Origin: an uncultured Candidatus Saccharibacteria bacterium
Lineage (GTDB): Bacteria > Patescibacteriota > Minisyncoccia > Sungbacterales > JBBTQR01
Reading direction: 5' to 3'
Assembly: GCA_964365285.1 (NCBI GenBank)
Contig: CAYIPF010000002.1
Coordinates: 1-50,290 of the forward strand
DNA: 50,290 nucleotides
Under the pieces are notes generated by a model. The model was not told where the DNA came from, did no database searches, and saw nothing but the letters and a program-made list of their open reading frames with translations. The position numbers and the translations under genes are program-made. Positions 4,741 through 38,619 of this stretch are shown in pieces (position 1 is the first letter of the stretch; every line of letters starts with the position of its first letter).

Positions 4741-5682
4741 TCACAAGTTGATTGTTTCTTTAATCTGGTATGGCTGTTTCCCCTGCGATTCATAATAGAT
4801 GCGCATGAGAATTTCAGCGACAATTCCGGTGACAATGAACTGGACGCCGACTAATATAAGGAAAATTGAAAGAATTGGCAAGGGCGTGCGCACAAAACTT
4901 GTGCCCATAAATTTTAATACCAACGCCCCGCCTCCAGCCAATAACCCGAGAAAAAATGTTCCAAGTCCAAGACCGCCAAAAAAATGTATCGGACGCGACA
5001 TATACACCACCAAAAACTTCATAAACAAAAGATCAAGAACAACACGAAATGTCCGTGAAAAACCATATTTACTTTTACCAAAACGGCGTGGCGTATAAGA
5101 AACCGGCAATTCACCTATTTTTGCGCCCTGAAGATACGCGTACGCCGGCATGAAACGATGCATCTCGCCATACAAAGGGATATCGGAAATAACTTTTCGG
5201 CGATACACCTTTAATGTACAACCATAATCATGAAGCTTGGCCCCGCCAATATTTGAGATGAGATAATTTGCAACCATTGAAGGAAGCTTACGAGAAATAA
5301 AATTTCCCTGCCAACGATTAACACGCCAACCGGAGACAACGTCAAGTTTTTCGTTTTTGAGCTTTGCGATAAGCTTTGGAATATCAGCGGGATCATTTTC
5401 CAGATCACTGTCTATGGTAATGAGAATCTCCCCTTTAGCCGCCTGAATGCCCGCAGAAAGCGCCGCGGTCTGACCAAAATTTCGCGCAAAATGGATGAGT
5501 TTTAGCTTTTTATATTCTTTGGCAATTTCAGAAAGCTCTTCAAAGCTTCCGTCAATTGATCCGTCGTCAATAGCCAGAAGTTCATACTCTTCGCCAATGG
5601 CATCTACAACAGACCGCAACGCCTTTAAAAGCGGTTTGATATTTTCTCGTTCGTTATATATTGGAAAAATTATTGAAATCAT
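4741..5682 (-). CDS. GT2 polyprenyl-phosphate sugar synthase (GtrB/ArnC/DPM1-like) with C-terminal TM helices
   Basis: 313 aa. ISIIFPIYNERENI, LLAIDDGSIDGS and ITIDSDLENDP (DXD) motifs. Two hydrophobic helices at the C-terminus. Confidence 0.85.
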   Translation of the reverse strand: MISIIFPIYNERENIKPLLKALRSVVDAIGEEYELLAIDDGSIDGSFEELSEIAKEYKKLKLIHFARNFGQTAALSAGIQAAKGEILITIDSDLENDPADIPKLIAKLKNEKLDVVSGWRVNRWQGNFISRKLPSMVANYLISNIGGAKLHDYGCTLKVYRRKVISDIPLYGEMHRFMPAYAYLQGAKIGELPVSYTPRRFGKSKYGFSRTFRVVLDLLFMKFLVVYMSRPIHFFGGLGLGTFFLGLLAGGGALVLKFMGTSFVRTPLPILSIFLILVGVQFIVTGIVAEILMRIYYESQGKQPYQIKETINL

Positions 5683-7277
5683 TGTTTTCGTCTATAAAGA
5701 AGGAGCGTCCCCCCATCATTGCCTTCCGTATATTTCCGAGGATATACATTTAATTCGGTTGCAATCAATTCAAACCTATCATTCAAGATTTTCTTAAATT
5801 CTTCAAGTTTTTCCGGTACATTTTCCGTTCCTTTCCCCCAAAATGGAGAGCGGACATAAGGCGTTGACCATGTTTCTTGGTGCATAACAATGTAATTTGT
5901 TTCATTGCGAGCCCAATCCAAAAGCATTTCCATATTATAAAAACCGTAACGCTTTACCCATTCAGTATCCGTAATTGCCAGAAAAAGAAAATTTCTGTTT
6001 ACCAACGGCGGAAAAGTTCGAAGATCCGCGGTAAAAACATGCCCCACCGTGTTATCGAAAGCAAGAATTGTTTCGCCCTTTGGTATATAACGCCTCAATA
6101 CGGCAGCGCCGCGATCGAGACGGTGAAGATCGGTCTCTACGCGCGGATCGGAAAAAAGATCGGTACGATAAAGATTTGTGCCAAGATTCATGCCAAGAAC
6201 CACCGCAAACAAAATAAGTGCGTATTTTTTATCATTAAAAAATTTCGCAATTCCTACTGTTATGACAAGCGCGATTAAAGGCATGAAATAGTTGGCATAA
6301 TAAACGCTTCCAACAAAACGCCAATAAAAATAATGTGCCCCGAGAAGACCAAACGATAAAAATAGAAGTAACGCGTACAAACGCTCAGCTCTAAGAAATT
6401 CAAACAACGCCCTTCTCTTGTCTAAAAAAATGGAAATGACAACGAAAAGAAAAAATAAAACAAAGCCATAATATTCCTTAAGAAATTGGGTTAAAATTTC
6501 TAAAAATTCCATAAACGACGGCATGCTTATGGTGTTTATAGGAAGCTCCTTGTAAAAACCGTAACTAAAAAACGCACTCAAAAGATGCCCTAGAGCAACG
6601 GATGGATTTGGAATAATTATAGGCAGATATCCAAACGCTATAACGAAAATCGCTGTTAATCCGTATAGCATAAAAGAGCGCAATGGGGCGTTCATGATAA
6701 AAAGATACGCTATATAAATCGGTATAATAACCGCCATATTCGATCTCGCAAGAAACAATATTCCCGTCATAAAACCAGAAAAAAATGCTCGCTTTGTCCA
6801 AGATATTTCACGCAGTTCCAACCAAACCATGAACATAAGCAAAAACATGGTCATAGCATACATGGTGGCGGTTATATAATTAGAAACGAGAAGAAGGTTT
6901 GTAAACGTAAGAGCGACAGCGCCAATCCCCGCCCACCGACCGCCCAGTTTTTTCCCGACACAGTACACCAAACCTATTAATCCTATAAAAAATAATGCGG
7001 ACAAAACCCTACCGACATAAATACTTGGTCCAAAAAAATATTGAACGAGTCCGTATGTCGGAATAACAAGTGGAGGATAATAAAAAGCGCCAGTTACGAA
7101 AGGAATGGACTCGCCCTTGAGAATAAGATAACTCCGAAATGCTGAAAAGTATTCGTCAACATACATCTCGCGAAAGAAAAATGAAATTATAATTTCGCCA
7201 ATAAAAATAATCGCAATAAAAAATACTGCGCCATAAAACATCCTGTCTGATTTTTCTCTATTTAGATTTAGCCACAT
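5679..7277 (-). CDS. GT-C fold polytopic glycosyltransferase (PMT_2/ArnT-like)
   Basis: 532 aa with more than 10 hydrophobic segments. First-loop acidic motif MYVDEYFSA (the DE motif of the PMT/ArnT families). Roughly 150-aa soluble C-terminal domain. 4-nt overlap with the GT2 gene. Confidence 0.75.
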   Translation of the reverse strand: MWLNLNREKSDRMFYGAVFFIAIIFIGEIIISFFFREMYVDEYFSAFRSYLILKGESIPFVTGAFYYPPLVIPTYGLVQYFFGPSIYVGRVLSALFFIGLIGLVYCVGKKLGGRWAGIGAVALTFTNLLLVSNYITATMYAMTMFLLMFMVWLELREISWTKRAFFSGFMTGILFLARSNMAVIIPIYIAYLFIMNAPLRSFMLYGLTAIFVIAFGYLPIIIPNPSVALGHLLSAFFSYGFYKELPINTISMPSFMEFLEILTQFLKEYYGFVLFFLFVVISIFLDKRRALFEFLRAERLYALLLFLSFGLLGAHYFYWRFVGSVYYANYFMPLIALVITVGIAKFFNDKKYALILFAVVLGMNLGTNLYRTDLFSDPRVETDLHRLDRGAAVLRRYIPKGETILAFDNTVGHVFTADLRTFPPLVNRNFLFLAITDTEWVKRYGFYNMEMLLDWARNETNYIVMHQETWSTPYVRSPFWGKGTENVPEKLEEFKKILNDRFELIATELNVYPRKYTEGNDGGTLLLYRRKQ

Positions 7278-7280
7278 ATA

Positions 7281-8096
7281 CTATTTTTTACGCGCGAAAA
7301 GATAAATTGAAGCCGCGACATCCTCTGCAAACTGAGATTTCGAAAGCGCAAAGTCAAAAATGCGCAATGGAGCAAAAAGAACTATAAAAAAATCTCTCAA
7401 TAAAGAATACCATGACTGGGAACCAAATGAAAAAATAAGCGCGATTGTATATGCCAAAGAGATGGTCAAGGCGGTTATGGGCCCGCCATCAATCCCAGAA
7501 CGAATAATATTAAAGTTCGCCAGACGATGGTCAAACCAGCCAAGCGTAAAACGAACATAATCATTCGGCGCTGAATGGAATGGATACATAAACGGAACGG
7601 CGCAATAAAAATACCCGTTCGGTTTCAACACCCTTATCATTTCGGCTAACGCCTTTTCAGGTTCTGGCATATGCTCCAACAATGAAATTGAAATTATCAT
7701 ATCAACAGACTCGTCGACAAATGGCAGATCTACAGCATCAGCAACAATATGAACTCCGGAATACGCACAGCAATCAAGATTTATTATAGCATTCCCAATG
7801 CGACTGATACCAGAACCGATGTTAACAACCGTTTTCTCTGAATACCCGCGTGGAAAAGCGATTGCCAGCGCCCTTGGAACGCCAAGGCTTTGCTCAAAAA
7901 AAGCGTTCATAAACGCCGTGATAAATTCATAGAACTTCGGAATTTTTTTCTTAACGCGCTCTCTAAAATCATTGCTTTGCGTGTTTGATGAGAGAACTTT
8001 TATATTTATAGGAATGAAAAAAAATACACCACGCTCTTCTTTAAGAGGTTGCCGTTTTATCATACAGTTAATTTTTGCTTTTATATCCTGATCCAT
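7281..8096 (-). CDS. class I SAM-dependent methyltransferase
   Basis: 271 aa. VVNIGSGISRIG (motif I), DLPFVDESVDMIISISLLEHMPEPEKALAEMIRVLKPNGYF (Methyltransf_11-like). Hydrophobic C-terminus. Confidence 0.75.
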   Translation of the reverse strand: MDQDIKAKINCMIKRQPLKEERGVFFFIPINIKVLSSNTQSNDFRERVKKKIPKFYEFITAFMNAFFEQSLGVPRALAIAFPRGYSEKTVVNIGSGISRIGNAIINLDCCAYSGVHIVADAVDLPFVDESVDMIISISLLEHMPEPEKALAEMIRVLKPNGYFYCAVPFMYPFHSAPNDYVRFTLGWFDHRLANFNIIRSGIDGGPITALTISLAYTIALIFSFGSQSWYSLLRDFFIVLFAPLRIFDFALSKSQFAEDVAASIYLFARKK

Positions 8097-8100: not shown

Positions 8101-9519
8101 TTATTTTGGAAACGATTCTATAAGCGCCTTAAGCACGCGTTCTGATGCTTTACCATCTAGTTTATAACACACTGTATCGCGAAGGTTTTTACGTCTTTCT
8201 GCGTCTAATGTAGGATTCTGAAAATAATCGTATAGAAATTTAAACAATTCTTCAAAGTTCCGAGCAGTTTTCAACGCGCCGGTTTTTAAAACATCCTGAA
8301 AGTGGTCAAACTCTTCAAAACGCCGAATTGAGTGGCGATACGGCCGTGTATGATGTCCGTCAAACGCAATTGCCATAAGTGGTCTGTCTAAAACAGCCGC
8401 TTCAAGCACCATTGTAGAATAAACAGAAATAACAACATCTGAATGATGCATGATGTTTATAAATTCTACGCTTTTCTCAAGGTCACCCCAAAACTCAAGC
8501 TGATAAAAACGCACGCGTGGATGCCCCTCAAAGCGATTGAATTTCTGTTCGTCAATTTCTTTGTCTTTCTTCCTGCCGCCAAGATACGGCCTAATGATCA
8601 CCCGTACATCAGAACCAAATTTTCCTTCATCAGCCCATTGGAGAATTGCATCAATAATCTCTGGTTCATCGGGACAGTACGCGCTTCCAGAAACATACAA
8701 GATGAGTTTTGCGTCAAGCGGAAAATTAAGCGATTTCAAAAGCTCTTCTCGCGAAACGTGATAATCGGTTCGCGAAATGAAATCAAAATGAGGATAGCCG
8801 GTAATCACAATTGACTGCTCACTATATGCCTGATGCTCGAGAGCCATCCGCTTCACCTGCTCGCTCTGCACTAAGAGCGTATCAACGTGAAATGGCAAAA
8901 AATATTTATCAAGATGATCCCAGCCGGCGGGCATACCAACGGTTTTGACCCCCTGCCGTTTTGCCTCGGCAATAAGCATAGTGTCAAACCAACCATATAA
9001 ATGCGGAGCAAAAACAACACCCGGCTTATACCGCTCAAAAGGTTTTTGAAACGGACGATCGATAAAAATTTTTAAATGAAGGGCTGGAACAAGCGCGGTC
9101 TTTAACCACGGAACACGCCCAAGTGTCCGCGCAATTATAATCTTCGCGGGTGCCAAATACCACCTTCCGCCCGCGGGCGGTTCATCAGGGCGCGTCCCCA
9201 TCGTCGCCATAACCTTTGTCGTACCGGTAAAAATAAGATAGGAGTAAAAAAAATAGAACATCTTTTGCAAAAAACTCTTCCGAGAAGGAATACCGACAAT
9301 TTCATACTGTATCCGATCCCCGAGTTCAGGGGTTTTTAAAAACGCACCATATTTTTCGCGAAACTGCGGTGGCACCAAAAATACAACCCGAAGCTCCGCA
9401 TGCGTCTGCATATATTCCTTGATCCGCTCGAAAAAACTCTGCGGAAAAAAGAAGAGATTTCTAAAAACCGCTGAGGATGATAGCGCGATAAAAATTGTTT
9501 TCTGTGTTGGCATATCCAT
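8101..9519 (-). CDS. TagB/TagF-like GT-B transferase, paralog 1 (family unresolved)
   Basis: The track start at 9525 is a TTG. ATGs lie at 9519 and 9513, so the start is uncertain. Shares motifs with three paralogs: KTIFI, YKPGVVF, GWDHL, TGYPHFD, KLILYVSG, VVISVYSTMVLEAAVLDRPL, and C-terminal DGKASERV. Confidence 0.6.
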   Translation of the reverse strand: MDMPTQKTIFIALSSSAVFRNLFFFPQSFFERIKEYMQTHAELRVVFLVPPQFREKYGAFLKTPELGDRIQYEIVGIPSRKSFLQKMFYFFYSYLIFTGTTKVMATMGTRPDEPPAGGRWYLAPAKIIIARTLGRVPWLKTALVPALHLKIFIDRPFQKPFERYKPGVVFAPHLYGWFDTMLIAEAKRQGVKTVGMPAGWDHLDKYFLPFHVDTLLVQSEQVKRMALEHQAYSEQSIVITGYPHFDFISRTDYHVSREELLKSLNFPLDAKLILYVSGSAYCPDEPEIIDAILQWADEGKFGSDVRVIIRPYLGGRKKDKEIDEQKFNRFEGHPRVRFYQLEFWGDLEKSVEFINIMHHSDVVISVYSTMVLEAAVLDRPLMAIAFDGHHTRPYRHSIRRFEEFDHFQDVLKTGALKTARNFEELFKFLYDYFQNPTLDAERRKNLRDTVCYKLDGKASERVLKALIESFPK

Positions 9520-9539
9520 ACACAATTAAATGTTTCCGA

Positions 9540-10955
9540 TTATTCAATCCTATGTTCTAAGCCGACAAATTGCAACAAGGCTTTCGCAAGCCGCTCCCCA
9601 GAGTTTCCGTCAAAAAACTCCGCTTCTTCTCGCACAATAGCACGGCGTTCATTATAAAGGCGCGCTGGCTCATTCAACGATTTCTGAATATGCAAAGCAA
9701 GTTCTTTCTTTGACTTTGCAAAATCAATACCGCCGCACCGCTTAATATCCGCCAAATGTTCCCATTCAAAAAAACGGCGGACGGAATTCCAGTAATTTTT
9801 TTGGCGCTCTCCGTCAAACGCAACGGCAATAAGCGGTTTATCAAAAATCGCCGCTTCAACCAAAAAAGTTGAGTACATGTTTATAACGACATCCGCATAA
9901 TTCAAACTACTTGAAAGAAATGCCAGCGACTCATCATTAAATTCCCACACATCTCTTCCTGTCGCAATATGATAGAGTGATGATTCGGCAAAAAAATCAT
10001 ATCGCCTCCGAATCTCGTCAAGCTTTTCCAAAGAAAAATCAAAACGGGGATACGGTCGAATGAGCACATGAGCATTCCACTCCTTGTGTTCTGAAACAAC
10101 TTCATAAAGAACTTTAAGCATTTCAAGATCGATTGAAAGCCCCGCCTTTCCAGAAAACGCGTACAAAATAAGTTTTTTTGTTGGATCGCCTCCAATGTGT
10201 TGAAAAAATTCTTTGCGCGACAAAATCCCTTCTTTGCGGAAATAACGATCATACTGCGGAATACCGATAACCGATATTTTGTCCGCCGGATAATCGCCAA
10301 ACCGTTCCGCTTGTTTTTTAATTCCGTGCGTATGGACAAGCAAACGGTCAGGATGAACCCGCAAAATCGCCTTGCTGTAAAAATTGTCCCATGAGTGCGT
10401 AAGACCAATCACAGGAATTCCCCGCGTTTTTGCTTCTTTTGCAATGCGATTTTCGGCATACAAAAGCGTTGGACAAAAAACGAGATCCGGTTTGTACTCA
10501 TCAAAAACTGCGGCATATATTCGTGAAGGAGTAATCCGATAAACGGCGCGAATAAATGCGCGCCAAAAATAAAATTGCCCAAAAAACCAACATACCCTCG
10601 CCAAAATAAAAAAGAAAAACCGCCGCACAAAAAAATCTCGCGAACCCTCCCGAAAAAACGCGTGTATCTGCTGAAGTGACGCGGTTCGCGTGTGAATACT
10701 TGAGACCTCAATAAATTTAAAAAAACGCTCTTGAAAACTTTTTGAAGCATCGTCAAAAGGAACGAACCGCGATCCAAAAGCTGAAAATTCTTTTGAGTAA
10801 TACTCGCGTCTGCTTTCCGGCACGAGAAATACGAGCAAAAGATCCGCGCGTTTTTTCAAGAGCTGATACGCATCGGTACGAAAAAAATTCCGCGAGAAAA
10901 ATCCGCTTGTTACCGGAATAAGAATCGTCTTTTTTCTTGAAATATTTTCGGTCAT
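9540..10955 (-). CDS. TagB/TagF-like GT-B transferase, paralog 2
   Basis: I place the start at the ATG at 10953-10955 (MTENISRKKTILIP). The track's longer 510-aa version adds a low-quality extension into the intergenic region. Motifs YKPDLVF, HSWDNF, IGIPQYD, KLILYAFSG, VVINMYSTFLVEAAIFDKPL, DGNSGERL. Confidence 0.65.
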   Translation of the reverse strand: MTENISRKKTILIPVTSGFFSRNFFRTDAYQLLKKRADLLLVFLVPESRREYYSKEFSAFGSRFVPFDDASKSFQERFFKFIEVSSIHTRTASLQQIHAFFREGSRDFFVRRFFFFILARVCWFFGQFYFWRAFIRAVYRITPSRIYAAVFDEYKPDLVFCPTLLYAENRIAKEAKTRGIPVIGLTHSWDNFYSKAILRVHPDRLLVHTHGIKKQAERFGDYPADKISVIGIPQYDRYFRKEGILSRKEFFQHIGGDPTKKLILYAFSGKAGLSIDLEMLKVLYEVVSEHKEWNAHVLIRPYPRFDFSLEKLDEIRRRYDFFAESSLYHIATGRDVWEFNDESLAFLSSSLNYADVVINMYSTFLVEAAIFDKPLIAVAFDGERQKNYWNSVRRFFEWEHLADIKRCGGIDFAKSKKELALHIQKSLNEPARLYNERRAIVREEAEFFDGNSGERLAKALLQFVGLEHRIE

Positions 10956-11006
10956 AGAACAGAAACAAATCCATGCATTCAACAAACCATCGAGACCATC
11001 TAAACT

Positions 11007-11016
11007 ATAATAACAC
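11007..11016 (-). promoter_or_regulatory. candidate extended -10 promoter (TGTTATTAT) for the paralog-2 operon
   Basis: Minus-strand GTGTTATTAT lies about 50 nt upstream of the ATG at 10955, just after the neuB terminator. Confidence 0.3.
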
Positions 11017-11038
11017 AAAAAAGAATGAAAATGTTTGT

Positions 11039-11086
11039 AAAAAATAAACGCCCTATTCTCATTTTGTCTCATTTTGAGAGGGCGTT
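11039..11086 (-). terminator. candidate terminator after neuB
   Basis: Stem AACGCCCT / AGGGCGTT (11047-11054 / 11079-11086), followed by TATTTTTT on the minus strand. The loop is long (24 nt) and contains CTCATTTTG twice. Confidence 0.5.
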
Positions 11087-11105
11087 CGTTAAAATTAGAA
11101 ATAAA

Positions 11106-12152
11106 TTACCTAAACATTTTCGGGGTAAGCTGAACATCTTTTGCGATATTTTGTGTTGCGCGCTTACCAAGAATCTTCGGAAATTGTTCGGCAAGTATTT
11201 TCCCCGTTCCCGGCCGCTTAACCCAAAGATTCTTCATCGTAAACTTCTCACCCCTTTTGACATCAGCGATGGTTACAACGGTTGCGTAGGCAAAATCAAT
11301 CGTCGGTTTCTCTTTCTTGAGAATCCTCTTCTCTCCTCCGCGTGCCTCCCAAATTGCGCGGGATCCAATAATCATATTACAAAGACCCGTTGGATCTAAA
11401 GAAATCTCAATATCGGGACCCGACCATTTCATATCGGAGGTGAAATGCTTTTCAAGAATACTCGCCCCAAGCGCGACAGCTCCGAGACATGTCCAAATCC
11501 CAAGCGAATGATCGCTCAATCCGAGAACGGCATCGGGAAATGCCTTCCTCATCTGCGCGATTGCCCCATACCGAACTTCTCTGTATGGAGTCGGATACAT
11601 TGAAGTACAGTGAAGAAGCGCGTAAGGCGTTTTATATGTATGAAAAATTTTAACGCTCTGTGCAATCGCCCGAATATCATTCATACCGGTACTCAAAATA
11701 ATCGGCTTTCCGAATTTCGCAATATGCTCGACAAGCGGATAGTTGTTGCATTCGCCGGATCCGATTTTATAAGCAACTACCCCGATCTTTTTAAGACGAT
11801 CTGCCGCTGCGCGAGAAAACGGAGTACAAAGATACATCATCCCCTTGCTCTCAACATAAGCCTTAAGCTCACGCTCCTCCGTCTCAGAAAAAGCGCACCG
11901 CGCCATAATATCCCAAATAGAAACATCGGCATTGCCTGGAACGATATTCCGTGCCACCGGAACCATCTCATCCTCAAGGATATGGGACTGAAATTTCGCA
12001 ATCTCACATCCCGCCACATGAGCATCGTCAATCATACGCTTTGCTTTTTTCATGCTTCCTTCATGATTGATGCCAATCTCGGCAATCACAAGGGGCGGAT
12101 AATCAACGCCTATTCTTCTTTTTCCAATCCGTATCTCGGGGTTTTTCTTCAC
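11106..12152 (-). CDS. neuB: N-acylneuraminate (nonulosonate) synthase, NeuB family with C-terminal SAF domain
   Basis: 348 aa. GTG start at 12150-12152 with GGAGGGG 7 nt upstream. PLVIAEIGINHEGSMKKAKRMID, ILSTGM, LHCTSMYPTP and GLSDHS motifs. The sugar specificity (Neu5Ac, legionaminic or pseudaminic acid) is not resolvable by eye. Confidence 0.85.
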   Translation of the reverse strand: MKKNPEIRIGKRRIGVDYPPLVIAEIGINHEGSMKKAKRMIDDAHVAGCEIAKFQSHILEDEMVPVARNIVPGNADVSIWDIMARCAFSETEERELKAYVESKGMMYLCTPFSRAAADRLKKIGVVAYKIGSGECNNYPLVEHIAKFGKPIILSTGMNDIRAIAQSVKIFHTYKTPYALLHCTSMYPTPYREVRYGAIAQMRKAFPDAVLGLSDHSLGIWTCLGAVALGASILEKHFTSDMKWSGPDIEISLDPTGLCNMIIGSRAIWEARGGEKRILKKEKPTIDFAYATVVTIADVKRGEKFTMKNLWVKRPGTGKILAEQFPKILGKRATQNIAKDVQLTPKMFR

Positions 12153-12219
12153 AGTATGGCCCCTCCATTCTTATATTAGCAACGAACTATGCTATGCGCC
12201 TTTCTATAACAACTTGATA

Positions 12220-12945
12220 CTACCTTTTTGTTTCAATGCCACACGCGACAACCTTTTCAGCCATACGCCAATCATCCATCGTGTTTATATCAAGTGCGTA
12301 TTTTTTATCCATAATATATGGTTTAACATTCTTTCCAAAAAAATTCGACTCTTTTTGGTCAAAAAGAAATTTTGTTTTAAAGAGATAGAGCGCGCATGTA
12401 TTCCAAAAAGCATTCGGTAAATCCTGCCGTCGCGATATCCTCTTACGCACCGGTCTACCACTCCAAAGCGTAAGCCATCCATTTTTATCAATTTTCATCG
12501 TCCGATCAGGGTTAAATTGTTCTGGAATTTCAGAAACTCCAAGCACTGAATCTGCGCCGCTGCGCTTAAGAAGCTTTACAGCTTCTTGTATATGAAAGGG
12601 CTGACGAAACGGTGATGTTGGCTGAAGAATCATAATATAATCAGCGCTATAATTTTCTATTTCTTTCAGATAGGAAACCGCATGCAAAAGAACCGGCAGA
12701 GTTGCGGTATCATCTTTCGCAAGCTCTTTTGGACGCATAAAGGGCACCTCCGCGCCGTATCTTCGTCCAACTTCAGCTATTTTCCGATCATCAGTTGAAA
12801 GAATTACGCGATCAAAAACACCCGACTTCAAAGCAGTTTCGATCGTATACGCAATGAGCGGCTTTCCTCCAAGCTTTTTTATATTTTTCCCCGGAATACC
12901 CTTTGAACCGCCGCGAGCGGTTATTATTCCCAAAAACTTAGTCAT
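12220..12945 (-). CDS. neuA: CMP-N-acylneuraminate (nonulosonate) cytidylyltransferase
   Basis: 241 aa. GIITARGGSKGIPGKNIKKLGGKPLIAYTI, LSTDD and ILQPTSPFR are classic CTP_transf_3 motifs. Confidence 0.85.
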   Translation of the reverse strand: MTKFLGIITARGGSKGIPGKNIKKLGGKPLIAYTIETALKSGVFDRVILSTDDRKIAEVGRRYGAEVPFMRPKELAKDDTATLPVLLHAVSYLKEIENYSADYIMILQPTSPFRQPFHIQEAVKLLKRSGADSVLGVSEIPEQFNPDRTMKIDKNGWLTLWSGRPVRKRISRRQDLPNAFWNTCALYLFKTKFLFDQKESNFFGKNVKPYIMDKKYALDINTMDDWRMAEKVVACGIETKR

Positions 12946-14137
12946 AGAATTTTTTTTGAGTATAGAGCCTCATTGTACGCAAAACTCGAGCAATGTTTTT
13001 TGCGGTCCGAGGTTTCCAATATATCCTTGAAGATTTGAATGGTCCGTGAGCGCATTGTTTTTTAACCGCTTTCTCTATCGCCTGTGCGTCACCTTCAATG
13101 ACATCTATGACATTTTCACCGCGCAACCTGCCGTTTTGCCGACTGCCCAAATTTACAACTGGCGTACCAAGATACGAACATTCTTTTATTCCTGAGGAAG
13201 AATTGCCGACAAGGCACGATGCGCGTTTCAAGAGGGCGATAAAATCTTCTGATTGAAGATTGGTTACAAAGCGAATGCCTTTTGTGGTACCGCCTTTATC
13301 CCGCTCGCGCAAATGCCTGATAGCCTCAGATATCTCTCCGGTACCGGCATCATTATTTGGCCAAAACCAAACCGCAGGTAACCCAATCCGGTGGATTGAA
13401 TCGGCAAGCGCCGTCACATAGCGCCAATTTTCTTCTTTGGTCTGTGTGATTACGGGATGATACATAACGACAATAAACGGCATTGAAATATCCAGATCAT
13501 CGCCCGCACCACGCGTCTTGAAAAAATCTGCCTGTAATTTTTTTTTCACTGCCGTGGCAACCTCTATATCGAGCGAACCAACATTGAAAACATACCTTGA
13601 ATCCTCGCCCATCTGTATCACTCTTTTTCTTGATTCTTCATTGGTAACAAAATGCGCGTGAGAAAGTTTTGTCACTGCATGACGAATACTCTCATCAACG
13701 CTCCCCGTTATATCGCCACCCTCTATATGAGCGATCATTGTATTCAAATATGCCGCGGTCATAGCAATGGGCAACTGTTCAAAACGATCCCCATTTACAA
13801 CAACGATATCGGGATTAAGCTTATATATAATATTCGCAAATTCTAATCCAATAAGGGCTGCGGTTTTAGCCATGGCGATGTGATTGCCGCCATCAACAAT
13901 ATGAAAAAGCGTCTCTTCCACGGGAAGTCCGGTCGAAACGATTTCAGCGTGTATATTTTGACTATATTTATCAAGTGGAATCGCCCCACCTAAAATGACC
14001 TGGAGCTCTACATCGGGCGCGCGTTGAAGTTCCGCCAAAAGAAGCTTCACTCGACCATAATAAGCGCGATTTGTTATCGGAAAGCAAATTTTTCTTTTCT
14101 TGATATTTTTTTTCATATGTATACTGCGCCGTGTCAT
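12938..14137 (-). CDS. neuC: UDP-N-acetylglucosamine 2-epimerase (hydrolysing), NeuC-like
   Basis: 399 aa. The ATG at 14137 forms an ATGA overlap with the upstream stop. HIEGGDITGSVDESIRHAVTKLSHAHFV and GNSSSGIKE motifs. Confidence 0.8.
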   Translation of the reverse strand: MTRRSIHMKKNIKKRKICFPITNRAYYGRVKLLLAELQRAPDVELQVILGGAIPLDKYSQNIHAEIVSTGLPVEETLFHIVDGGNHIAMAKTAALIGLEFANIIYKLNPDIVVVNGDRFEQLPIAMTAAYLNTMIAHIEGGDITGSVDESIRHAVTKLSHAHFVTNEESRKRVIQMGEDSRYVFNVGSLDIEVATAVKKKLQADFFKTRGAGDDLDISMPFIVVMYHPVITQTKEENWRYVTALADSIHRIGLPAVWFWPNNDAGTGEISEAIRHLRERDKGGTTKGIRFVTNLQSEDFIALLKRASCLVGNSSSGIKECSYLGTPVVNLGSRQNGRLRGENVIDVIEGDAQAIEKAVKKQCAHGPFKSSRIYWKPRTAKNIARVLRTMRLYTQKKFYD

Positions 14138-15513
14138 ACGAACCGAGCTTTTTGCTGCAAAAGCTCAACAATATGCTTTCCGATTCGTTCGCCCGATTTT
14201 CCATCCTGAAAAAAACACTGCTCCTTCGCGAGCAACGCCCGCGCTACCCCATCAACAGACGGATTGTTAAGATATTCGTTTACCGATGCAATAAGCCCAT
14301 CAACATTTTGAACCAATCGTATACCCCCAGTTGAAAGCGCCTCTTTATAATGCTCTTTGCCATAATAGAGAATTGGGGAGCGAGATAATTTAATGTTCTT
14401 TCGTATTAAAAAATTAATATTTATTATCGGCTTATCAAATACCGCCGCGTCAACCGAAATGCTCGATGCGTAGCATATAATCAATGACATATAATACAGC
14501 GTATCACTTAAATAGCGCAACTCTTCAAATGTCATATCCCAATCCGTTCCCTTTTTTGAAGAAAATCGCTTTCCCGGATAATCATACGCAAACTGAGGCC
14601 GTTTTGCTATTTCGCGTTCATCAACATAATCATTCGGCGGAATCCTGACCAAAATCGCAATATTTTTACCAAACTTGCCTTCGTCGTTTAAGCGCCCGAT
14701 ACAATCAAGCATATTCCAATCATCATCGCTGTATTGATTACCGAGTGGCGAATAGACAATGATTTTTTTCGTAAGATCAATATGAGCTTTTTTATAAAAT
14801 TCTTCCCGCGACATATACGGCGCTTGAAAATGATAATCATAATGCGGCACACCGCCAATAAAAATTTTTTCTGCGGGTATATCATGATGCGCTATAAGCG
14901 TTTTTTTTATTACATCATTAAAAACAATAAGTGTGTCGGGAACAAGACGAAGGACGCACCGTGCGCTCGCCCTATCCCATGAATTTATAAGCCCAACTGT
15001 CTTGATACCGCGCCGTAATGATTCGCGCAACATCGCACATTCACGCTCATCAAACAAATTTGCCATAAAAACTACATCCGGCTTATATTTTTCAAAAAAC
15101 GGACGAAATGTCGCGCTTCCGATAAAATTCAAATCTAAAAAACGAAAAAGTTTTATAAAAAATGGGCGCGCAAATAATCGATTAGCGATGCGACCAAGAT
15201 AATAAATACTGTGGCTCCCCCTGTCATCAAACGCCAATGTGCGTAAAAATTTTGTTGTTCCCGTGCGAAGAAGAATGAACTTTATATGCATGAACAACGC
15301 ATCAAGACCGCGAGGCGGAACAACTGGAACAACTTCATAAAAAATTCTTTCCCCTTCTCCGAATTCTGCCTTATGGTAATCGTAGCGTCCTTCATTCTTA
15401 AGAAAAAGCACCACACGAACATCCTCTTCCTTCATTATCGTTTTAATGATATCGGTACGCAGAATATTTTTTGATTCCACTCCCTCAAAAATCGTTATGA
15501 ATATCGTTTTCAT
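14134..15513 (-). CDS. TagB/TagF-like GT-B transferase, paralog 3
   Basis: 459 aa. MKTIFITIF, YKPDVVF, NSWDRA, GGVPHYD, KIIVYSPLG and DGKSGERI motifs. Confidence 0.65.
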   Translation of the reverse strand: MKTIFITIFEGVESKNILRTDIIKTIMKEEDVRVVLFLKNEGRYDYHKAEFGEGERIFYEVVPVVPPRGLDALFMHIKFILLRTGTTKFLRTLAFDDRGSHSIYYLGRIANRLFARPFFIKLFRFLDLNFIGSATFRPFFEKYKPDVVFMANLFDERECAMLRESLRRGIKTVGLINSWDRASARCVLRLVPDTLIVFNDVIKKTLIAHHDIPAEKIFIGGVPHYDYHFQAPYMSREEFYKKAHIDLTKKIIVYSPLGNQYSDDDWNMLDCIGRLNDEGKFGKNIAILVRIPPNDYVDEREIAKRPQFAYDYPGKRFSSKKGTDWDMTFEELRYLSDTLYYMSLIICYASSISVDAAVFDKPIININFLIRKNIKLSRSPILYYGKEHYKEALSTGGIRLVQNVDGLIASVNEYLNNPSVDGVARALLAKEQCFFQDGKSGERIGKHIVELLQQKARFV

Positions 15514-17441
15514 TGTATGTTCATTTCCTTGACAATTCGTTCAGCGAGAGACCGGGCGTCAAGTTCATGAAACGCAAGAATTTCAGGACCCCATCCGCAT
15601 TCTGGTATTTGAGAAAGCCCCATAAAAACAACGCGCGGATGTTCTGAGGAAATTTTTGCAAATTCAGACGCAAGGAAATTGCCAAAACCAAAACTAGTGT
15701 AGTGATCTTCAAGAATAAAAATTGTTTTATATGAAAAAAGCGTTTTAAGCCACCGTCTATCAGCGCGGTTAAGCCATGGCATATTTATAACAGCCAAAGA
15801 AAAATTTTTTTGTTTAAGGATTTCTGCCGCTTTCATCGCTTCCGTAAGCATAACGGGACCAAAAGAAATGAGTACAGCGTCACTTCCCTTTTTTAAAAAT
15901 GAACCGCGTCCAACGGCGAGTTGATGCCCGCTTGGAAGTTTATAGGGAAGGTTTTGAACAACATTTGAAAATCGTAAATAAGTGCTTTCTTTATTTTTAA
16001 AAATAGCAAAGCGGATAACCTGCCGCGCCTCTTCTTCGTTTGCGGGCTCCAAAAGAACAAGGCCCGGAATTGATCCGACGGCGGAAATATCTCGCACAGA
16101 TTGATGAGAATGACCCGGTCCGGAAGGCAAAATTCCCGACAATGTTGCGACATAAATTATTTTCTTTTTCTCTGTCGCGTTGTTGTACATTTGTTCGTTC
16201 CCACGAGCAGAAAGAAAGCTCGCATACGAATGAACGACAGGCACAAGCCCTTTAAGCGCCATGCCCCCCGCCGCTGAAACCATATCTTGCTCAGCAATAC
16301 CAAACTGAAAAAACCTTTTAGGAAATTTTTTCTTGAACGCCCCAATACCGCCGTCAAGCCATAAATCAGCGTCCAGAACAACGATATTTTTTCTTTTCTC
16401 CGCGATTGAAAGAAGTTCTTGCCCAAAAGCTTCTACTAATTTTTCAACAGGTCCATCAATAGTCGGACGCGACGGCAATTCAACTTCTTTAAGAACTAAT
16501 GTGGAAAGTTTTAGATTCTCAAGTTTTAGATTAATGGCGGTGACAAGTTCATGAACCGCACGGATATAATCATCGGTTTTTGGAGCGCCTGCATGAAAAT
16601 TATAAAATTCTTTATCAACAAATGCCGATGATTCCATGAAAGAAACCCCCTTCCCTTTAATCGTATCGGCAATCAAAACTTTCGGTTTATTTTTTATTTT
16701 TTTAAATTCGGAGAAAACTTTCGCAAGCGCTTTAAAATCGTGCCCGGAAACACGACGCGTTTCCCAACCAAAATCTTTAAACTTTGCTTCTATGTTGCCC
16801 AAGTCGCTCACATTTGTAACCCAATTATCAGACTGCATTTTATTTGCATCAATGATTGCGATGATTTCGCCAAATTTTCCATTTGCAATCGGCTGAAGCG
16901 CTTCCCAAATTTGCCCCTCCTGGAGCTCTCCGTCACCCAACATAACAAAAATTCTTCCGCCCGCGCCAAAATGACGATTTGAGATAGCCATCCCCTTTGC
17001 TTTAGAAAGCCCCATGCCAAGCGATCCGGAATTTGCCGCGATAAAAGGAGTCGCAATATCGGGATGACCAGGCAGTCCGTAAAGCCGTCGCAGTTTGTGA
17101 ATAAAATCAAATGGTAATTTTTCAAGACCGATAAGCGCCGAATATAACGCTGGCGCATCGTGTCCCTTTGATGAAAAATATGTGTCACTCCGCGTTTTCC
17201 CGGAATTAGGATTTTCAAGCTCGTTGAGCCACAACCAAAGCACGATATCCATCGAACTAAAACTTGATCCAATGTGACCGGAACCGGCCCGCGTAATCAT
17301 ATAAAGAGTGTTGAGCCGAAAAATATCAGCAAGAATTGTCGCTTTTTTGAATCGGTCTTTTACTTCCCGTCGCACGCGGCGAATTTCGGAAAGTGGCACT
17401 AAATAAAGTTTTCCTGACTGAAGTTGTTCAAATGTTTCCAT
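15510..17441 (-). CDS. transketolase-family ThDP enzyme, fused N- and C-terminal halves
   Basis: The track start at 17483 is a TTG inside the SDR gene, so I use the ATG at 17439-17441 (METFEQ). GSGHIGSSFSSMDIV, GDGELQEGQIWEA (ThDP/Mg motif) and FGIAEQDMVSAAGGMA (Pyr domain). Confidence 0.8.
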   Translation of the reverse strand: METFEQLQSGKLYLVPLSEIRRVRREVKDRFKKATILADIFRLNTLYMITRAGSGHIGSSFSSMDIVLWLWLNELENPNSGKTRSDTYFSSKGHDAPALYSALIGLEKLPFDFIHKLRRLYGLPGHPDIATPFIAANSGSLGMGLSKAKGMAISNRHFGAGGRIFVMLGDGELQEGQIWEALQPIANGKFGEIIAIIDANKMQSDNWVTNVSDLGNIEAKFKDFGWETRRVSGHDFKALAKVFSEFKKIKNKPKVLIADTIKGKGVSFMESSAFVDKEFYNFHAGAPKTDDYIRAVHELVTAINLKLENLKLSTLVLKEVELPSRPTIDGPVEKLVEAFGQELLSIAEKRKNIVVLDADLWLDGGIGAFKKKFPKRFFQFGIAEQDMVSAAGGMALKGLVPVVHSYASFLSARGNEQMYNNATEKKKIIYVATLSGILPSGPGHSHQSVRDISAVGSIPGLVLLEPANEEEARQVIRFAIFKNKESTYLRFSNVVQNLPYKLPSGHQLAVGRGSFLKKGSDAVLISFGPVMLTEAMKAAEILKQKNFSLAVINMPWLNRADRRWLKTLFSYKTIFILEDHYTSFGFGNFLASEFAKISSEHPRVVFMGLSQIPECGWGPEILAFHELDARSLAERIVKEMNIQ

Positions 17442-17457
17442 GGTATTGTCTCTAAAA

Positions 17458-18303
17458 TTAACGCGCCGTCCATCCGCCGTCAACGATCAGAACCGTACCC
17501 GTCACATACTCCGATGCCCGCGAAGCGAGAAAAAGAACCGCCCCATTATAATCCGTTGGTTTTGCCATTCTTCCAAGAATCGTTCTTTTTTCATATTCGC
17601 GAACAAATTCAGGATCAAGATCAGAAGTATACACACCCCCTGGAGCCAATGTATTTACTCTAATCCCAAAAGGTCCGGCATATTCAGAAAGCCATTTGGT
17701 AAAACCGATCATCGCTGATTTGGCAACGGTATACGACACCGGCTTATAATATTTTTCGCCCTTTCGCCTTCTGAATTCATAAAGCGATTGATCGGGAGAC
17801 ACAACCCCGTATGTGGAAGAAACATTTATAATACTGCCTTTCTTTTTCGCGCGGCGTAGTGCGCGAATAACCGCCTGTGAAACAAAAAAAGCGCTTTTCA
17901 TATGAGAATCAATCATTGTCTCCCACGCCTCGCTAGAATAATCTTCAAACGGCCCATCAATTAACATAGAACTATTCGGCATGGCGCCGAGTCCGGCATT
18001 ATTTACTAAAATCGTCGGTGTCCCAAATCTTTTTTCAACATTCAAAATAATTTCATCAACGGCGTTCTTATCCGTTAAATCAACGCGATATTCAAAAATC
18101 GGAAGCTTTTTCTTTTTCAACAAAGCAATTTTTTTACTACTCGATGTTTTTATGTCTAAAACAGCAACCTTGGCTCCAGCCCGAGCTAATGTTTCGGCAT
18201 ATTCACCGCCAAGCATTCCTTGTCCGCCTGTTACCACGGCAACCTCTCCCGACAAATCAAAAAAAATTTTCAAATCGCGCGTTTTTAATTTAATCTTTTT
18301 CAT
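17458..18303 (-). CDS. short-chain dehydrogenase/reductase (SDR)
   Basis: 281 aa. VAVVTGGQGMLGG (TGxxxGxG), NNAG, and YTVAKSA (YxxxK). Confidence 0.85.
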   Translation of the reverse strand: MKKIKLKTRDLKIFFDLSGEVAVVTGGQGMLGGEYAETLARAGAKVAVLDIKTSSSKKIALLKKKKLPIFEYRVDLTDKNAVDEIILNVEKRFGTPTILVNNAGLGAMPNSSMLIDGPFEDYSSEAWETMIDSHMKSAFFVSQAVIRALRRAKKKGSIINVSSTYGVVSPDQSLYEFRRRKGEKYYKPVSYTVAKSAMIGFTKWLSEYAGPFGIRVNTLAPGGVYTSDLDPEFVREYEKRTILGRMAKPTDYNGAVLFLASRASEYVTGTVLIVDGGWTAR

Positions 18304-18366
18304 AAAATAAATACATTAAACCTTATGCGCATAAAACCTGCTATAAAACAGCATATGATCTAATAT

Positions 18367-18376
18367 AGTATAACAG
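18367..18376 (-). promoter_or_regulatory. candidate extended -10 promoter (TGTTATACT) for the SDR-transketolase-neu operon
   Basis: Minus-strand CTGTTATACT lies between the ALDH terminator and the SDR start. No good -35 element. Confidence 0.3.
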
Positions 18377-18399
18377 AAAAATGCGATAAAAGGTTGCAT

Positions 18400-18448
18400 A
18401 AAAAAACCGTTCCACTGGATAGACAATTATGCCTATCCAGTGGAACGG
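18400..18448 (-). terminator. rho-independent terminator after the aldehyde dehydrogenase gene
   Basis: Perfect 16-bp stem CCGTTCCACTGGATAG / CTATCCAGTGGAACGG with a 10-nt loop, followed by T7 on the minus strand. It starts 3 nt after the stop codon. Confidence 0.85.
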
Positions 18449-18450
18449 AA

Positions 18451-19890
18451 TTATTGATAACTCACCTGCTTCCAATCGGCATAGAAATCCAAAGCCGCAC
18501 GCCCCGGCTCACGCCATCCGTCTCCAGATACCCCCATACCGCCAAACGACATATGAGATTCAGAACCGTGCGTTGGTCCATTGATACGGACAACGCCCGC
18601 CCTATATAAATTTTCAAACGCTCTTTGTCGTTTATAGTCCTGCGTACAAACAGCACCCGTAAGTTTATAAGCGGAATTATTCGCAAGTCGGACAGCATCA
18701 TCGAATGTTGTTGCGCGATACAAAACCGCAACAGGTCCAAATACTTCTTTGTGAGAAATCGGATCATTTTCCGGAACACCTTCCAAAACCGTTGGCGTAA
18801 GAAAATATCCGACTCCGTCGTTTAGGTTATATAAATTCGTCCCCCTCACCGCGACAACAGCCCCGCGCGAAACAGCGCCAAAGATATCCTGCTCGATTTC
18901 CACCAAACGCTTTTCGCTGATAATGGCGCCATAATTATCCGAATCAGCTGTGCCAACTTTTAATCCCCTTACAAGTTCAATAAACTTATTTTTGAATGTA
19001 TCATACACTCCGTCCATAACAATAATACGACTGGCGGCGGCGCACCTTTGCCCGCCGTCAATAAACGCCGATTGCACAGCAAGCTCCGCCGCGCGATCAA
19101 GATCGGCGTCATCACAAACAACAAATGGATTTTTTCCGCCACCTTCGGCAAGCATCTTCGCGTCCCGTTCAACGGCCTCTCTTCGAATGCGCTTTGCCGT
19201 AGCGGACGAACCGGTAAAACTGATAAATCGAACCCGTTGATCATGAACAAGCGGTAATCCAACTTCATTACCAAATCCCTGAATAACTGAAAAAACTCCC
19301 GCCGGCACGCCAGCATCCTTAAGAACCGTTGCAAACCATATCGGAACATACGGAGCATACTCGTGCGCCTTCAATACAACAGCGTTTCCGCATAAAAGAG
19401 CTGGAAACGATTTCCACGCAACTCCAGCGAGCGGATTATTGAAGGGCGTGATAAGCGCCCCAACTCCAATTGACTGGCGCACATAAAACACCCGCCTTCC
19501 GGGAACTCCGCTTTGCAAAATATATTCGCCGAGGTCTTTTCCGAGTTCAGAAATAAATCGCCCGCATTCAATTGTTGCCTCAACTTCTCCCCGCGCACTT
19601 TTTAAAGATTTCCCGCATTCCAACGCTACAATACCCGTCGCCTCATCTTTCCGCGCTTCAAGGAGCTCTGCCGCTTTACGAATAATCTTTCCCCGCTCAA
19701 CGGATGTCATTCGCGACCAGCCCTCATACGCGTATTCTGCCGATGTTATGGCGTCATTCACCGTTCGTTCATTCCCACGCTGAACATCTGCAAGTTTTTT
19801 ACCGGTTGAGGGATCGTTCTTTGTAAACACAGGAAAAGAATAAACACGCTCATTGTAAATCCAGTGCGGTATTGTCTCTGGATACTTCAT
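18451..19890 (-). CDS. NAD(P)-dependent aldehyde dehydrogenase
   Basis: 479 aa. FTGSSATAKRI, EGGGKNPFVV and GQRCAAASR (catalytic Cys region). GGGGG lies 6 nt upstream of the ATG. Confidence 0.85.
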   Translation of the reverse strand: MKYPETIPHWIYNERVYSFPVFTKNDPSTGKKLADVQRGNERTVNDAITSAEYAYEGWSRMTSVERGKIIRKAAELLEARKDEATGIVALECGKSLKSARGEVEATIECGRFISELGKDLGEYILQSGVPGRRVFYVRQSIGVGALITPFNNPLAGVAWKSFPALLCGNAVVLKAHEYAPYVPIWFATVLKDAGVPAGVFSVIQGFGNEVGLPLVHDQRVRFISFTGSSATAKRIRREAVERDAKMLAEGGGKNPFVVCDDADLDRAAELAVQSAFIDGGQRCAAASRIIVMDGVYDTFKNKFIELVRGLKVGTADSDNYGAIISEKRLVEIEQDIFGAVSRGAVVAVRGTNLYNLNDGVGYFLTPTVLEGVPENDPISHKEVFGPVAVLYRATTFDDAVRLANNSAYKLTGAVCTQDYKRQRAFENLYRAGVVRINGPTHGSESHMSFGGMGVSGDGWREPGRAALDFYADWKQVSYQ

Positions 19891-19926
19891 TATAAACCCC
19901 CATATTTTATGTTAATGAACACCCAA

Positions 19927-19954
19927 ATACTACACAAAAACTATATTTCGTCAA
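19927..19954 (-). promoter_or_regulatory. candidate sigma70-type promoter for the aldehyde dehydrogenase gene
   Basis: Minus strand TTGACG (19949-19954), 16-nt spacer, TAGTAT (19927-19932). Located between repeat R1 and the ATG at 19890. Confidence 0.4.
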
Positions 19955-19970
19955 CTCATCATGCACAAAT

Positions 19971-20127
19971 AATAAAGCTCCTCGGGGCAGAGCCCCGAGG
20001 TATCGTTGGGACTCGCTTCGCTCGTACAATCGTAGGCCGAAGGCAGACGGCATTGACCTTTGTTCCGCCGTCGCGTCGAGAAAATGTGCGCATACGCACA
20101 TTTTCCTCTCCGCTAGGCGTAATAAAA
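19971..20127 (-). repeat. R-family structured repeat, copy R1
   Basis: 157 nt, differing from R2 by 3 substitutions. Contains three hairpins, including GAAAATGTGCG-CATA-CGCACATTTTC (plus strand) and CCTCGGGG-CAGAG-CCCCGAGG. Lies between the stop of cytidylyltransferase 2 and the ALDH promoter. Confidence 0.9.
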
Positions 20128-20142
20128 TTAGCGGACACCTCC

Positions 20143-20910
20143 CTAAACTGGGTGTGTGGGATCGACGGGACCAGCGCCTTCTTTAAACTTCTCAATTAAT
20201 TTTTCGGCAATAAAAAAATCGATTGGCGAATCAATGTCAATCGCCCGTTCTTGAGGGATAATATGATAACGCACCCTATCACCGGTTAAAGAACTGGTAC
20301 TCGAAATCACTTCCGGACGAAAAGCGATAACATTTGCTCGAAAATAAACTTTTTCATAATTTTGTCTAGCGATCGGAGTTACATCCCTACCACTTTCTGT
20401 AAAATAAGAAACGAGATGCTTTCCGCCACTACCGTCATTGATCAGCTTCAATGCTTTATGTGGAATTTGCCGAGCTTCGGCAATTACTACGGCAGATTGA
20501 GCGTTTGGGTCCTTTAAAAGCTCTTCTATGCAGGCGTCAATATCAACAACGCTCTGCAATGGCGCAGTAGCCAGCAAACGAACAACCATATCGGGCTTAT
20601 AACCATCATTTTTATACAACCACTCAATCATGTGTTTCACATATTCAAATTCAGGAGAGCCGTCTGATGCCAATTCTTTTGGCCTTAGATATGGCACTTC
20701 AGCCCCAAATTGTCTTGCAACAATAGCGTACTCTTCAATGTCGGTGGAAACAACGAGCCGATTAATATATTTTGATTCACGAGCCGCATCCAAAATCCAG
20801 CCGACAAGAGGTTTTCCGGCTAATGGTTTAATGTTTTTATGGTGCACCCCCTTAGAGCCGGAACGAACACCGACAATTCCCAAAATCTTTAAATTGGATG
20901 TATCTTTCAT
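20143..20910 (-). CDS. acylneuraminate-type cytidylyltransferase, second copy (CTP_transf_3 family)
   Basis: 255 aa. GIVGVRSGSKGVHHKNIKPLAGKPLVGWIL, VSTD, LLATAPLQ. Confidence 0.75.
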   Translation of the reverse strand: MKDTSNLKILGIVGVRSGSKGVHHKNIKPLAGKPLVGWILDAARESKYINRLVVSTDIEEYAIVARQFGAEVPYLRPKELASDGSPEFEYVKHMIEWLYKNDGYKPDMVVRLLATAPLQSVVDIDACIEELLKDPNAQSAVVIAEARQIPHKALKLINDGSGGKHLVSYFTESGRDVTPIARQNYEKVYFRANVIAFRPEVISSTSSLTGDRVRYHIIPQERAIDIDSPIDFFIAEKLIEKFKEGAGPVDPTHPV

Positions 20911-20928
20911 GCGCTGTATATCCTTGTG

Positions 20929-24084: not shown

Positions 24085-24100
24085 AACGCATAAAGACTTT

Positions 24101-38419: not shown

Positions 38420-38428
38420 TTCTAAAAT

Positions 38429-38587: not shown

Positions 38588-38619
38588 AAGATAACAAACA
38601 AAACCATAAAATCAAATTC

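Follow-up and report, generated by a model that had tools for sequence, protein, structure and literature searches.

Why should a very small bacterium keep four divergent genes of one transferase-like family within a single surface-glycan locus, and what do their products transfer? The question is raised by a stretch of 50,290 nucleotides (contig CAYIPF010000002.1 of assembly GCA_964365285.1, hereafter the window) from an uncultured Candidatus Saccharibacteria bacterium, placed in the Sungbacterales by the Genome Taxonomy Database (GTDB). The source genome, 831 kb in 113 contigs and 97.9% complete, belongs to the tiny, uncultured Patescibacteria of the groundwater type. Its four genes in question (paralogs 1 to 4, Table 1) are interleaved with genes for nonulosonic acids (NulO). 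Our answer, which we hold to be fairly likely, is that the four proteins are membrane-associated inverting transferases of NulO activated with cytidine monophosphate (CMP), and that they derive from the scaffold of the phosphotransferase TagF.

The four open reading frames (ORFs) are uninterrupted and align end to end with 25-29% identity. Pairwise BLASTP gave E values of 1.6e-31 to 3.8e-59 (112-188 bits), against 26.9 bits for the best of 100 shuffles, which bears out the end-to-end similarity described in an earlier note on this DNA. The motifs which that note had listed are present as well: YKP, (S/G)WD, G(Y/I/V)(P/S)(H/Q)(Y/F)D and DG(K/N)(A/S)(S/G)ER. Paralog 2 was read from its ATG at 10955; its longest ORF begins at 11072. 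A genome-wide search returned exactly four members of the family, all in the window. In an alignment of 94 homologues (paralog-3 numbering), P145, W179, D180, G221, D226, P362 and D437 are invariant, and R290, H388, G438 and R443 nearly so. A tree of 108 members contains a paralog-3 clade of 43 rows, mostly next to NeuC, a paralog-4 clade of 39 rows, and an additional basal clade without representative in the window genome; orthologues of paralog 1 with ~60% identity occur in many Parcubacteria. The four paralogs are, as judged from the tree, old orthogroups, which have probably diverged in their acceptor, their linkage or their donor.

The family had been called unassigned in the earlier note; this does not hold, as all four paralogs pass the cut-off of 22.1 bits of the Pfam family PF04464 (Glyphos_transf), with 59.9 bits for paralog 1 and 34.2, 32.8 and 29.3 bits for the others. 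Most of this score comes from the C-terminal half. Public homologues were found in Patescibacteria only, apart from one metagenome-assembled genome (MAG) labelled Bacteriovorax, and many of them are labelled CDP-glycerol glycerophosphotransferase family protein (CDP, cytidine diphosphate). With a profile made from the four paralogs, 1,598 clusters (50% identity) were collected at E<=1e-30. The N-terminal half resembles NulO transferases of Tannerella: the best NCBIfam match of all four paralogs is NF046086 (BFO_1060 family glycosyltransferase; 37.8-56.9 bits, the highest for paralog 1, E 1e-9 to 1e-15), and the matching region is the N-terminal part that contains SWD. The same model came out on top for each of 17 orthologues of paralog 3 and each of 8 proteins from a sister subfamily described below (E 1e-9 to 1e-21 overall).

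By sequence, TarL and the TagF-like Cps3D were the only solved structures reached, and an hhalign comparison of the family with canonical TagF-type proteins from other Patescibacteria gave a probability of 99.6. A model of paralog 3 was built with AlphaFold2 on the 94-sequence alignment, since a single sequence reached a mean confidence (pLDDT) of 37.9 only; with the alignment, pLDDT rose to 94.9 and the predicted template modelling score (pTM) to 0.92, and the predicted fold is GT-B. Searched with Foldseek, this model matched first the UDP-N-acetylglucosamine (UDP-GlcNAc) 2-epimerases (E 1.5e-13, TM 0.56/0.67) and MshA, then TarL (8va1, E 6e-11) and TagF (3l7l, E 2e-9), which is a generic GT-B signal. 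The description of the paralogs as TagB/TagF-like GT-B proteins thus stands. Likewise, they lie outside the classical sialyltransferase families, as the earlier note had supposed: none of these families gave a Pfam match with any of the four at E<=1.

A further trait of the family is an insert of 80 residues before the Y-K-P motif, helical in the model and containing 12-17 Lys/Arg, 13-23 Phe/Trp/Tyr and 4-6 Asp/Glu. Such a basic and aromatic composition, together with the predicted helices, fits a protein that would bind at the membrane interface and act on a lipid-linked acceptor.

We then asked with which pathway the family is associated, using a sample of 401 Patescibacteria genomes in which a genome was counted as family-positive at E<=1e-30. 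The family is present in 21 of these genomes, spread over 9 families, and NeuB in 66. NeuB was found in 20 of the 21 family-positive genomes, the exception being a genome that is 92% complete, compared to 46 of the 380 others (12%). Fisher's test gives p ~3e-16 for this association, a value that is overstated because related genomes are not independent; counted by taxonomic family, 8 of the 9 families have NeuB. A second sample consisted of 53 related loci from GTDB species genomes, retrieved via 17 paralog-3 orthologues and including flanks of up to 10 kb on each side. NeuA or NeuB was present in 41 of them, and NeuA, NeuB or NeuC in 45. The misses were mostly short contigs; of the 27 loci that reached 15 kb, 26 contained NeuA or NeuB. 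Three contexts obtained by exact protein look-up also showed Epimerase_2, CTP_transf_3 and NeuB genes beside two or three members of the family, along with Wzy_C-TPR and flippase genes. The conserved co-occurrence with nonulosonate genes in other genomes, on which the earlier note had beforehand let its proposal depend, is therefore found at the level of genomes (20 of 21) as well as of long loci (26 of 27).

In the window itself the linkage is tight. All genes of the region are on the minus strand. The stop of paralog 3 and the start of neuC overlap by 4 nt (14134-14137), neuC and neuA overlap by 8 nt, and a gap of 67 nt then precedes neuB, in agreement with the coupling of paralog 3 to neuC-neuA-neuB reported before. 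On its upstream side, paralog 3 overlaps the transketolase gene by another 4 nt. Paralog 4, as also reported, lies beside the second NeuB/cytidylyltransferase cassette (Table 1).

TagB-like proteins next to NulO genes have been described elsewhere. In strain 92A2, BFO_1060 corresponds to Tanf_01245 and TFUB4_00887, two TagB-like proteins of Tannerella forsythia whose knock-outs lost the terminal pseudaminic acid (Pse) or legionaminic acid (Leg) derivative from the O-glycan (PMC5420450, 2017). The concept of a TagB-like NulO transferase has therefore a precedent dating from 2017, with genetic support only. Like the paralogs, this Tannerella family has a TagB-like GT-B domain in ~445 aa; its other feature, being encoded beside CMP-NulO biosynthesis genes, is seen for the paralogs in the window and in the related loci. 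The paralogs differ from it in scoring under its curated cut-off, in being confined, among the sequences retrieved, to Patescibacteria (the Bacteriovorax-labelled MAG aside), and in the presence of 2-4 old paralogs per locus. In the literature we found no paper joining Patescibacteria with nonulosonic acids, and none on the biochemistry of such TagB-like enzymes.

Could the paralogs be ordinary GT-B glycosyltransferases acting on UDP-, GDP- or dTDP-sugars, or could only some of them act on CMP-NulO, the link with NulO reflecting no more than a shared large locus? The locus is indeed rich in sugar genes, including ~8 GT4 genes, Gmd and aminotransferase and acetyltransferase genes; the paralogs typically outnumber the CMP-synthetases by 3 to 1; the Foldseek matches are generic for GT-B; and a TagB-like protein of Bacillus subtilis, SpsB, provides a cautionary precedent (see below). 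Nevertheless, the association is a specific one, with NeuB in nearly all family-positive genomes and in few of the others, it extends to almost every long locus, and it goes as far as the 4-nt overlap between paralog 3 and neuC. Moreover, the relatives that score against the family are proteins that release CMP (TarL, TarF, TarB, BFO_1060), with the single exception of a sub-threshold match to a GT4 N-terminal domain. On balance this explanation appears unlikely to us.

The catalytic residues were then compared with those of the TagF family. TagB, TagF and TarL share two invariant and essential histidines. The first, in the pair W299/H300 of TarL (H444 in TagF), acts as the base (PMC10901376); the second, H433 of TarL (H584 in TagF), makes contact with the alpha-phosphate, and protonation of the departing CMP has been proposed as its role (PMC10901376). 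Canonical PF04464 proteins were found in 8 of the 401 genomes; WHG is present in 7 of 11 such proteins examined, and several also have G-x-P-R-x-D and YAPT. In the paralog family the Trp-His pair is not seen, and Trp-Asp is invariant in the 94 homologues. The YAPTWR motif of the TagF family is absent from the paralogs.

Alignment of the two groups around this position was helped by the sister subfamily (loci L069-L076, e.g. 6606-7787 of L069, minus strand). Its members, of ~395 aa, lack the helical insert and have S-W-D-N, G-x-P-R-x-D and H-P-G-G as invariant motifs. Compared with the paralog family, the sister subfamily gave a probability of 100, with SWD on SWD; compared with the canonical TagF proteins it gave 98.1 and placed SWD directly onto WHG, so that the two Trp coincide and D meets H. 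In two alignments made through or including the sister subfamily, WHG falls at or immediately before SWD. The spacing from SWD to G-x-P-x-x-D is 43 aa in our family, and that from WHG is 47-55 in most canonical proteins. The second canonical His, in "F-R-A-H", which we take to correspond to TarL H433 since both come after the same strand, aligns with the H of "S-V-H-P" in the sister subfamily, and with P in paralog 3, Y in paralogs 1 and 2, and S in paralog 4. The statement of the earlier note that W-H-G reads W-D here is thus sustained by the profile alignment via the sister subfamily and by canonical proteins that do have WHG, while a direct alignment does not reproduce it cleanly (see below).

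The sister subfamily seems to stand between TagF and the paralog family. It adjoins a cytidylyltransferase and a ~630-aa fused NeuB in two families of Patescibacteria, and occurs without NeuB linkage in a third. A homologue search made with it returned Patescibacteria proteins only.

As a whole, the paralogs share with TagB, TagF and TarL (PF04464; PDB 3L7I-3L7L, 8VA1) the GT-B fold, the G-x-P-x-x-D linker, a YxSS...FDKP donor-site segment and the C-terminal DGxSxER; an example of the likeness in the C-terminal half is CYASSISVDAAVFDKP against SDYSSLIYEYAVFKKP of TarL. Both groups are expected to release CMP as leaving group, and both are probably monotopic membrane proteins. The differences are Trp-Asp for Trp-His, the absence of the second His and of YAPTWR, and a linkage to NeuA, NeuB and NeuC rather than to tagD.

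TagD, the CDP-glycerol synthase (TIGR01518), had no match in the window genome, nor had IspD/TarI (PF01128) any match above cut-off. Across the 401 genomes, TagD was above cut-off in 3, all with a canonical TagF and an adjoining TagD, and in none of the 21 family-positive genomes. None of the 8 genomes with canonical TagF is NeuB-positive, and these 8 do not overlap with the family-positive ones. Teichoic-acid-like chemistry and the NulO-linked family look mutually exclusive in this sample. Canonical TagF-type genes lie next to TagD in genomes G010, G334 and G355, of which G010 and G334 have WHG; none of the three is NeuB-positive.

These results bear on the possibility that the paralogs, like TagF, really transfer polyol or sugar phosphates and would make a teichoic-acid-like phosphodiester polymer from a CDP donor supplied by an unrecognised enzyme, the NulO genes being merely co-located. 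PF04464 above cut-off, the C-terminal similarity to TarL and Cps3D, the public label, and the existence of canonical TagF and TagD in some Patescibacteria lineages would all agree with it. We regard it nonetheless as decidedly unlikely: both phosphotransfer histidines that are essential in TagB, TagF and TarL are replaced, the enzymes for the donor (TagD, TarI) were not found here, TagD did not reach its cut-off in any family-positive genome, and canonical-TagF and family-positive genomes are disjoint sets of which only the latter has NeuB. The public label of CDP-glycerol glycerophosphotransferase is probably wrong. Very improbable, finally, is that the paralogs are not transferases at all, being enzymes of the epimerase_2/GT-B superfamily that modify nucleotide sugars, for instance a CMP- or UDP-linked NulO precursor: the leading Foldseek matches, weak matches to NeuC_NnaA (TIGR03568, E 0.01-0.2) and a C-terminal DG(K/R)(A/S)SER common to epimerases speak for it, whereas the UDP-GlcNAc 2-epimerase family PF02350 gave no Pfam match with any of the four, a true NeuC is already in the operon, and 3-4 divergent paralogs per locus with a basic and aromatic insert of membrane type fit transferases with lipid-linked acceptors better than soluble epimerases.

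If the paralogs are CMP-NulO transferases, as we favour, the following mechanism may be proposed. They would be monotopic GT-B transferases that arose from the CMP-releasing TagB/TagF scaffold, having passed from the phosphotransfer of CDP-glycerol or CDP-ribitol to glycosyl transfer from CMP-nonulosonic or ulosonic acids, with donors made by the neighbouring genes of NeuC, NeuB and NeuA type. The C-terminal Rossmann domain would retain the cytidine-nucleotide site of TagF and TarL, including the YxSS start of the phosphate-binding helix and the FDKP strand; the C-terminal half may have kept its similarity to TagF and TarL because CMP is released by CMP-sugar transferases just as it is by TagF-type enzymes. 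In the N-terminal domain, W179-D180 (paralog 3) would replace the Trp-His base: D180, held by W179, may take the proton from the acceptor hydroxyl, which would then attack C2 of the CMP-sugar with inversion. The His that assists the leaving group being replaced, R290, two residues upstream, and the family-specific H388 are candidates for a role at the CMP phosphate. The helical insert would dock the enzyme on the membrane, where the acceptor may be a lipid-linked glycan, and machinery of the Wzx/Wzy_C type might later export or ligate this glycan. We infer the acceptor, like the polymerising or single-addition role of each enzyme, from these features.

GT-B sialyltransferases (GT52, GT80, GT38) use an acidic residue of the N-terminal domain as catalytic base. 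The likeness that we propose with these CAZy families consists of the CMP-sugar donor, the GT-B fold and the acidic base. The paralogs differ from them by giving no Pfam match at E<=1 and by not conserving D/E-D/E-G and HP, of which the sister subfamily keeps an invariant H-P.

Several observations weigh against this reading. The NF046086 scores of 38-57 bits are to be read against a curated cut-off of 200, so that the paralogs are not members of the Tannerella family. The top Foldseek matches are epimerases, not transferases. The sialyltransferase motifs D/E-D/E-G and HP are not conserved among the four paralogs: DEG is present in paralogs 1 and 3 only, and none has HP at a conserved position. 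The direct hhalign of the family with the canonical proteins (99.6) sets WHG one strand before SWD; we regard this placement as an artefact, caused by the helical insert and by a long insertion in one template, and the His-to-Asp equivalence is supported, not proven, by the transitive alignment and the spacing. In B. subtilis, SpsB (TagB/SpsB family, COG1887) is like the paralogs in having a TagB-like domain and in lying inside a CMP-Leg operon (sps), yet deletion of spsB leaves the Leg of the spore surface undiminished (PMC7439481). Adjacency and a TagB-like domain can thus mislead, because SpsB is dispensable for Leg transfer, and we take this protein as a caution, not as a model. The members also outnumber the donors. 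A scheme of one transferase per donor was rejected, as the commonest locus has three members and a single NeuA; for the same reason some paralogs may use another donor. Alternatively, a single donor may serve several of them, which would then differ in acceptor or linkage. The donor and the chemistry that we propose rest on context and motif logic.

The matter is of some interest since the bacterial transferases of legionaminic, pseudaminic and related acids are largely missing, with few candidates whose support is mostly genetic. Should the assignment be right, the ~1,600 clusters (50% identity, E<=1e-30) would be a large and diverse set of enzymes for chemoenzymatic synthesis, and the family a clear case of a catalytic switch from His to Asp that turned a phosphotransferase scaffold into a glycosyltransferase. 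The CDP-glycerol glycerophosphotransferase label, as propagated in public records, wrongly implies teichoic acids in organisms where the donor pathway was not found. A wider reading, which we offer as a speculation and think doubtful, would be that in many Patescibacteria the TagF scaffold exchanged phosphodiester for glycosidic chemistry, with Trp-Asp in place of Trp-His. Sets of three to four enzymes would then join up to three kinds of CMP-acid into an anionic surface polymer, a poly- or oligo-ulosonate standing in for wall teichoic acid in ultra-small, Gram-positive-like episymbionts, and the family would be the largest reservoir of candidate NulO transferases, including the long-sought Leg and Pse transferases. 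Three ulosonate cassettes and four candidate transferases in a genome of 831 kb suggest that acidic sugars matter for the envelope or the host attachment of bacteria of the Candidate Phyla Radiation.

Table 1. Coordinates of the four paralogs and of the neighbouring genes in the window, with motifs or profile matches.
Feature	Position	Strand	Details
SAM (S-adenosylmethionine) methyltransferase	7281-8096	minus	Methyltransf_11 (Pfam); start 4 nt past paralog 1 stop
Paralog 1, TagF-fold family	8101-9519	minus	472 aa; GWD 199-201, GYPHFD 241, DGKASER 455
Paralog 2	9540-10955	minus	471 aa from ATG at 10955; SWD 188, GIPQYD 231, DGNSGER 449
NeuB-1, nonulosonate synthase, NeuB + SAF domains	11106-12152	minus	PF03102 234 bits; TIGR03569 360 bits, cut-off 399.65 not reached
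Cytidylyltransferase 1, CMP-nonulosonate synthetase type (CTP_transf_3)	12220-12945	minus	PF02348 97.5 bits; TIGR03584 (PseF) 201.6 vs cut-off 205.7
NeuC-type hydrolysing UDP-sugar 2-epimerase	12938-14137	minus	TIGR03568 336 bits, above cut-off 235.9
Paralog 3	14134-15513	minus	459 aa; SWD 178-180, GVPHYD 221, DGKSGER 437
Fused transketolase	15510-17483	minus	Pfam; upstream of paralog 3
SDR (short-chain dehydrogenase/reductase)	17458-18303	minus	Pfam; upstream of paralog 3
Aldehyde dehydrogenase	18451-19890	minus	Pfam; upstream of paralog 3
Cytidylyltransferase 2	20143-20910	minus	second ulosonate module
PanE-like reductase	20929-21846	minus	second ulosonate module
Enolase-superfamily enzyme	21824-22999	minus	second ulosonate module
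NeuB-2	22996-24231	minus	second ulosonate module
Paralog 4	24520-25869	minus	449 aa; SWD 179, GISHYD 222, DGKAGER 433; 288 nt upstream of NeuB-2

As to which NulO is made, the genes give mixed signals when compared with profiles. The nearest model of NeuB-1 and NeuB-2 is the N-acetylneuraminic acid (Neu5Ac) synthase, both being under its cut-off, whereas the cytidylyltransferases are nearest to PseF, and an aminotransferase of the LegC family is also present. The region 15510-24231, from the transketolase through NeuB-2, forms an unusual second ulosonate module without NeuC. Its transketolase-SDR-aldehyde dehydrogenase trio was also seen beside family members in loci L001, L009 and L039.

A third ulosonate cassette was detected outside the window, on contig C5 (locus L003, 401-9733). 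It comprises a methyltransferase, a NeuB-cupin fusion (514 aa), a GFO/IDH/MocA oxidoreductase, a CTP_transf_3 cytidylyltransferase, an EamA transporter and a 759-aa Wzy_C-TPR protein that resembles O-antigen ligase or PglL. Directly upstream of the paralog-3 orthologue, two close relatives (L001, L039) have the pair of NeuB-cupin and cytidylyltransferase genes. A 459-aa protein without Pfam match that precedes the NeuB cassette of C5 was considered as a fifth paralog, and found to be unrelated (hhalign probability 0.6). Of CMP/CDP-type sugar cytidylyltransferases, the genome yielded just the three CTP_transf_3 genes, each near a NeuB.

Variants of the architecture were met among the database proteins P0121-P0125 and P0369: some are relatives in the form of tandem fusions of ~900 aa, matched by the family profile in two stretches, and at least one relative, P0369 (699 aa), is fused to a SAM methyltransferase domain. 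Methyltransferase genes follow family members in other loci too.

Surface-glycan genes, in one large locus, make up the remainder of the window. Besides the GT4 genes, Gmd and the LegC-family aminotransferase already mentioned, it contains an acetyltransferase of NeuD/PglB type, a C-methyltransferase, and a pair of GT2 and PMT_2-like genes. In this pair (4741-7277), the GT2 product is of the polyprenol-phosphate-sugar-synthase type and has membrane helices at its C-terminus; its gene shares 4 nt with that of a 532-aa multi-pass membrane protein that has a weak PMT_2 (GT-C) match. Pairs of this kind are typical where glycosylation outside the cytoplasm draws on a lipid-phosphate sugar. Finally, two likely surface proteins are encoded at 36842-43151, flanking the glycan locus: one of 533 aa with PKD and lamin-tail domains, the other of 1,164 aa, rich in Ser, Thr and Ala, with an N-terminal PG_binding_1 domain. 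Both are possible targets of glycosylation.

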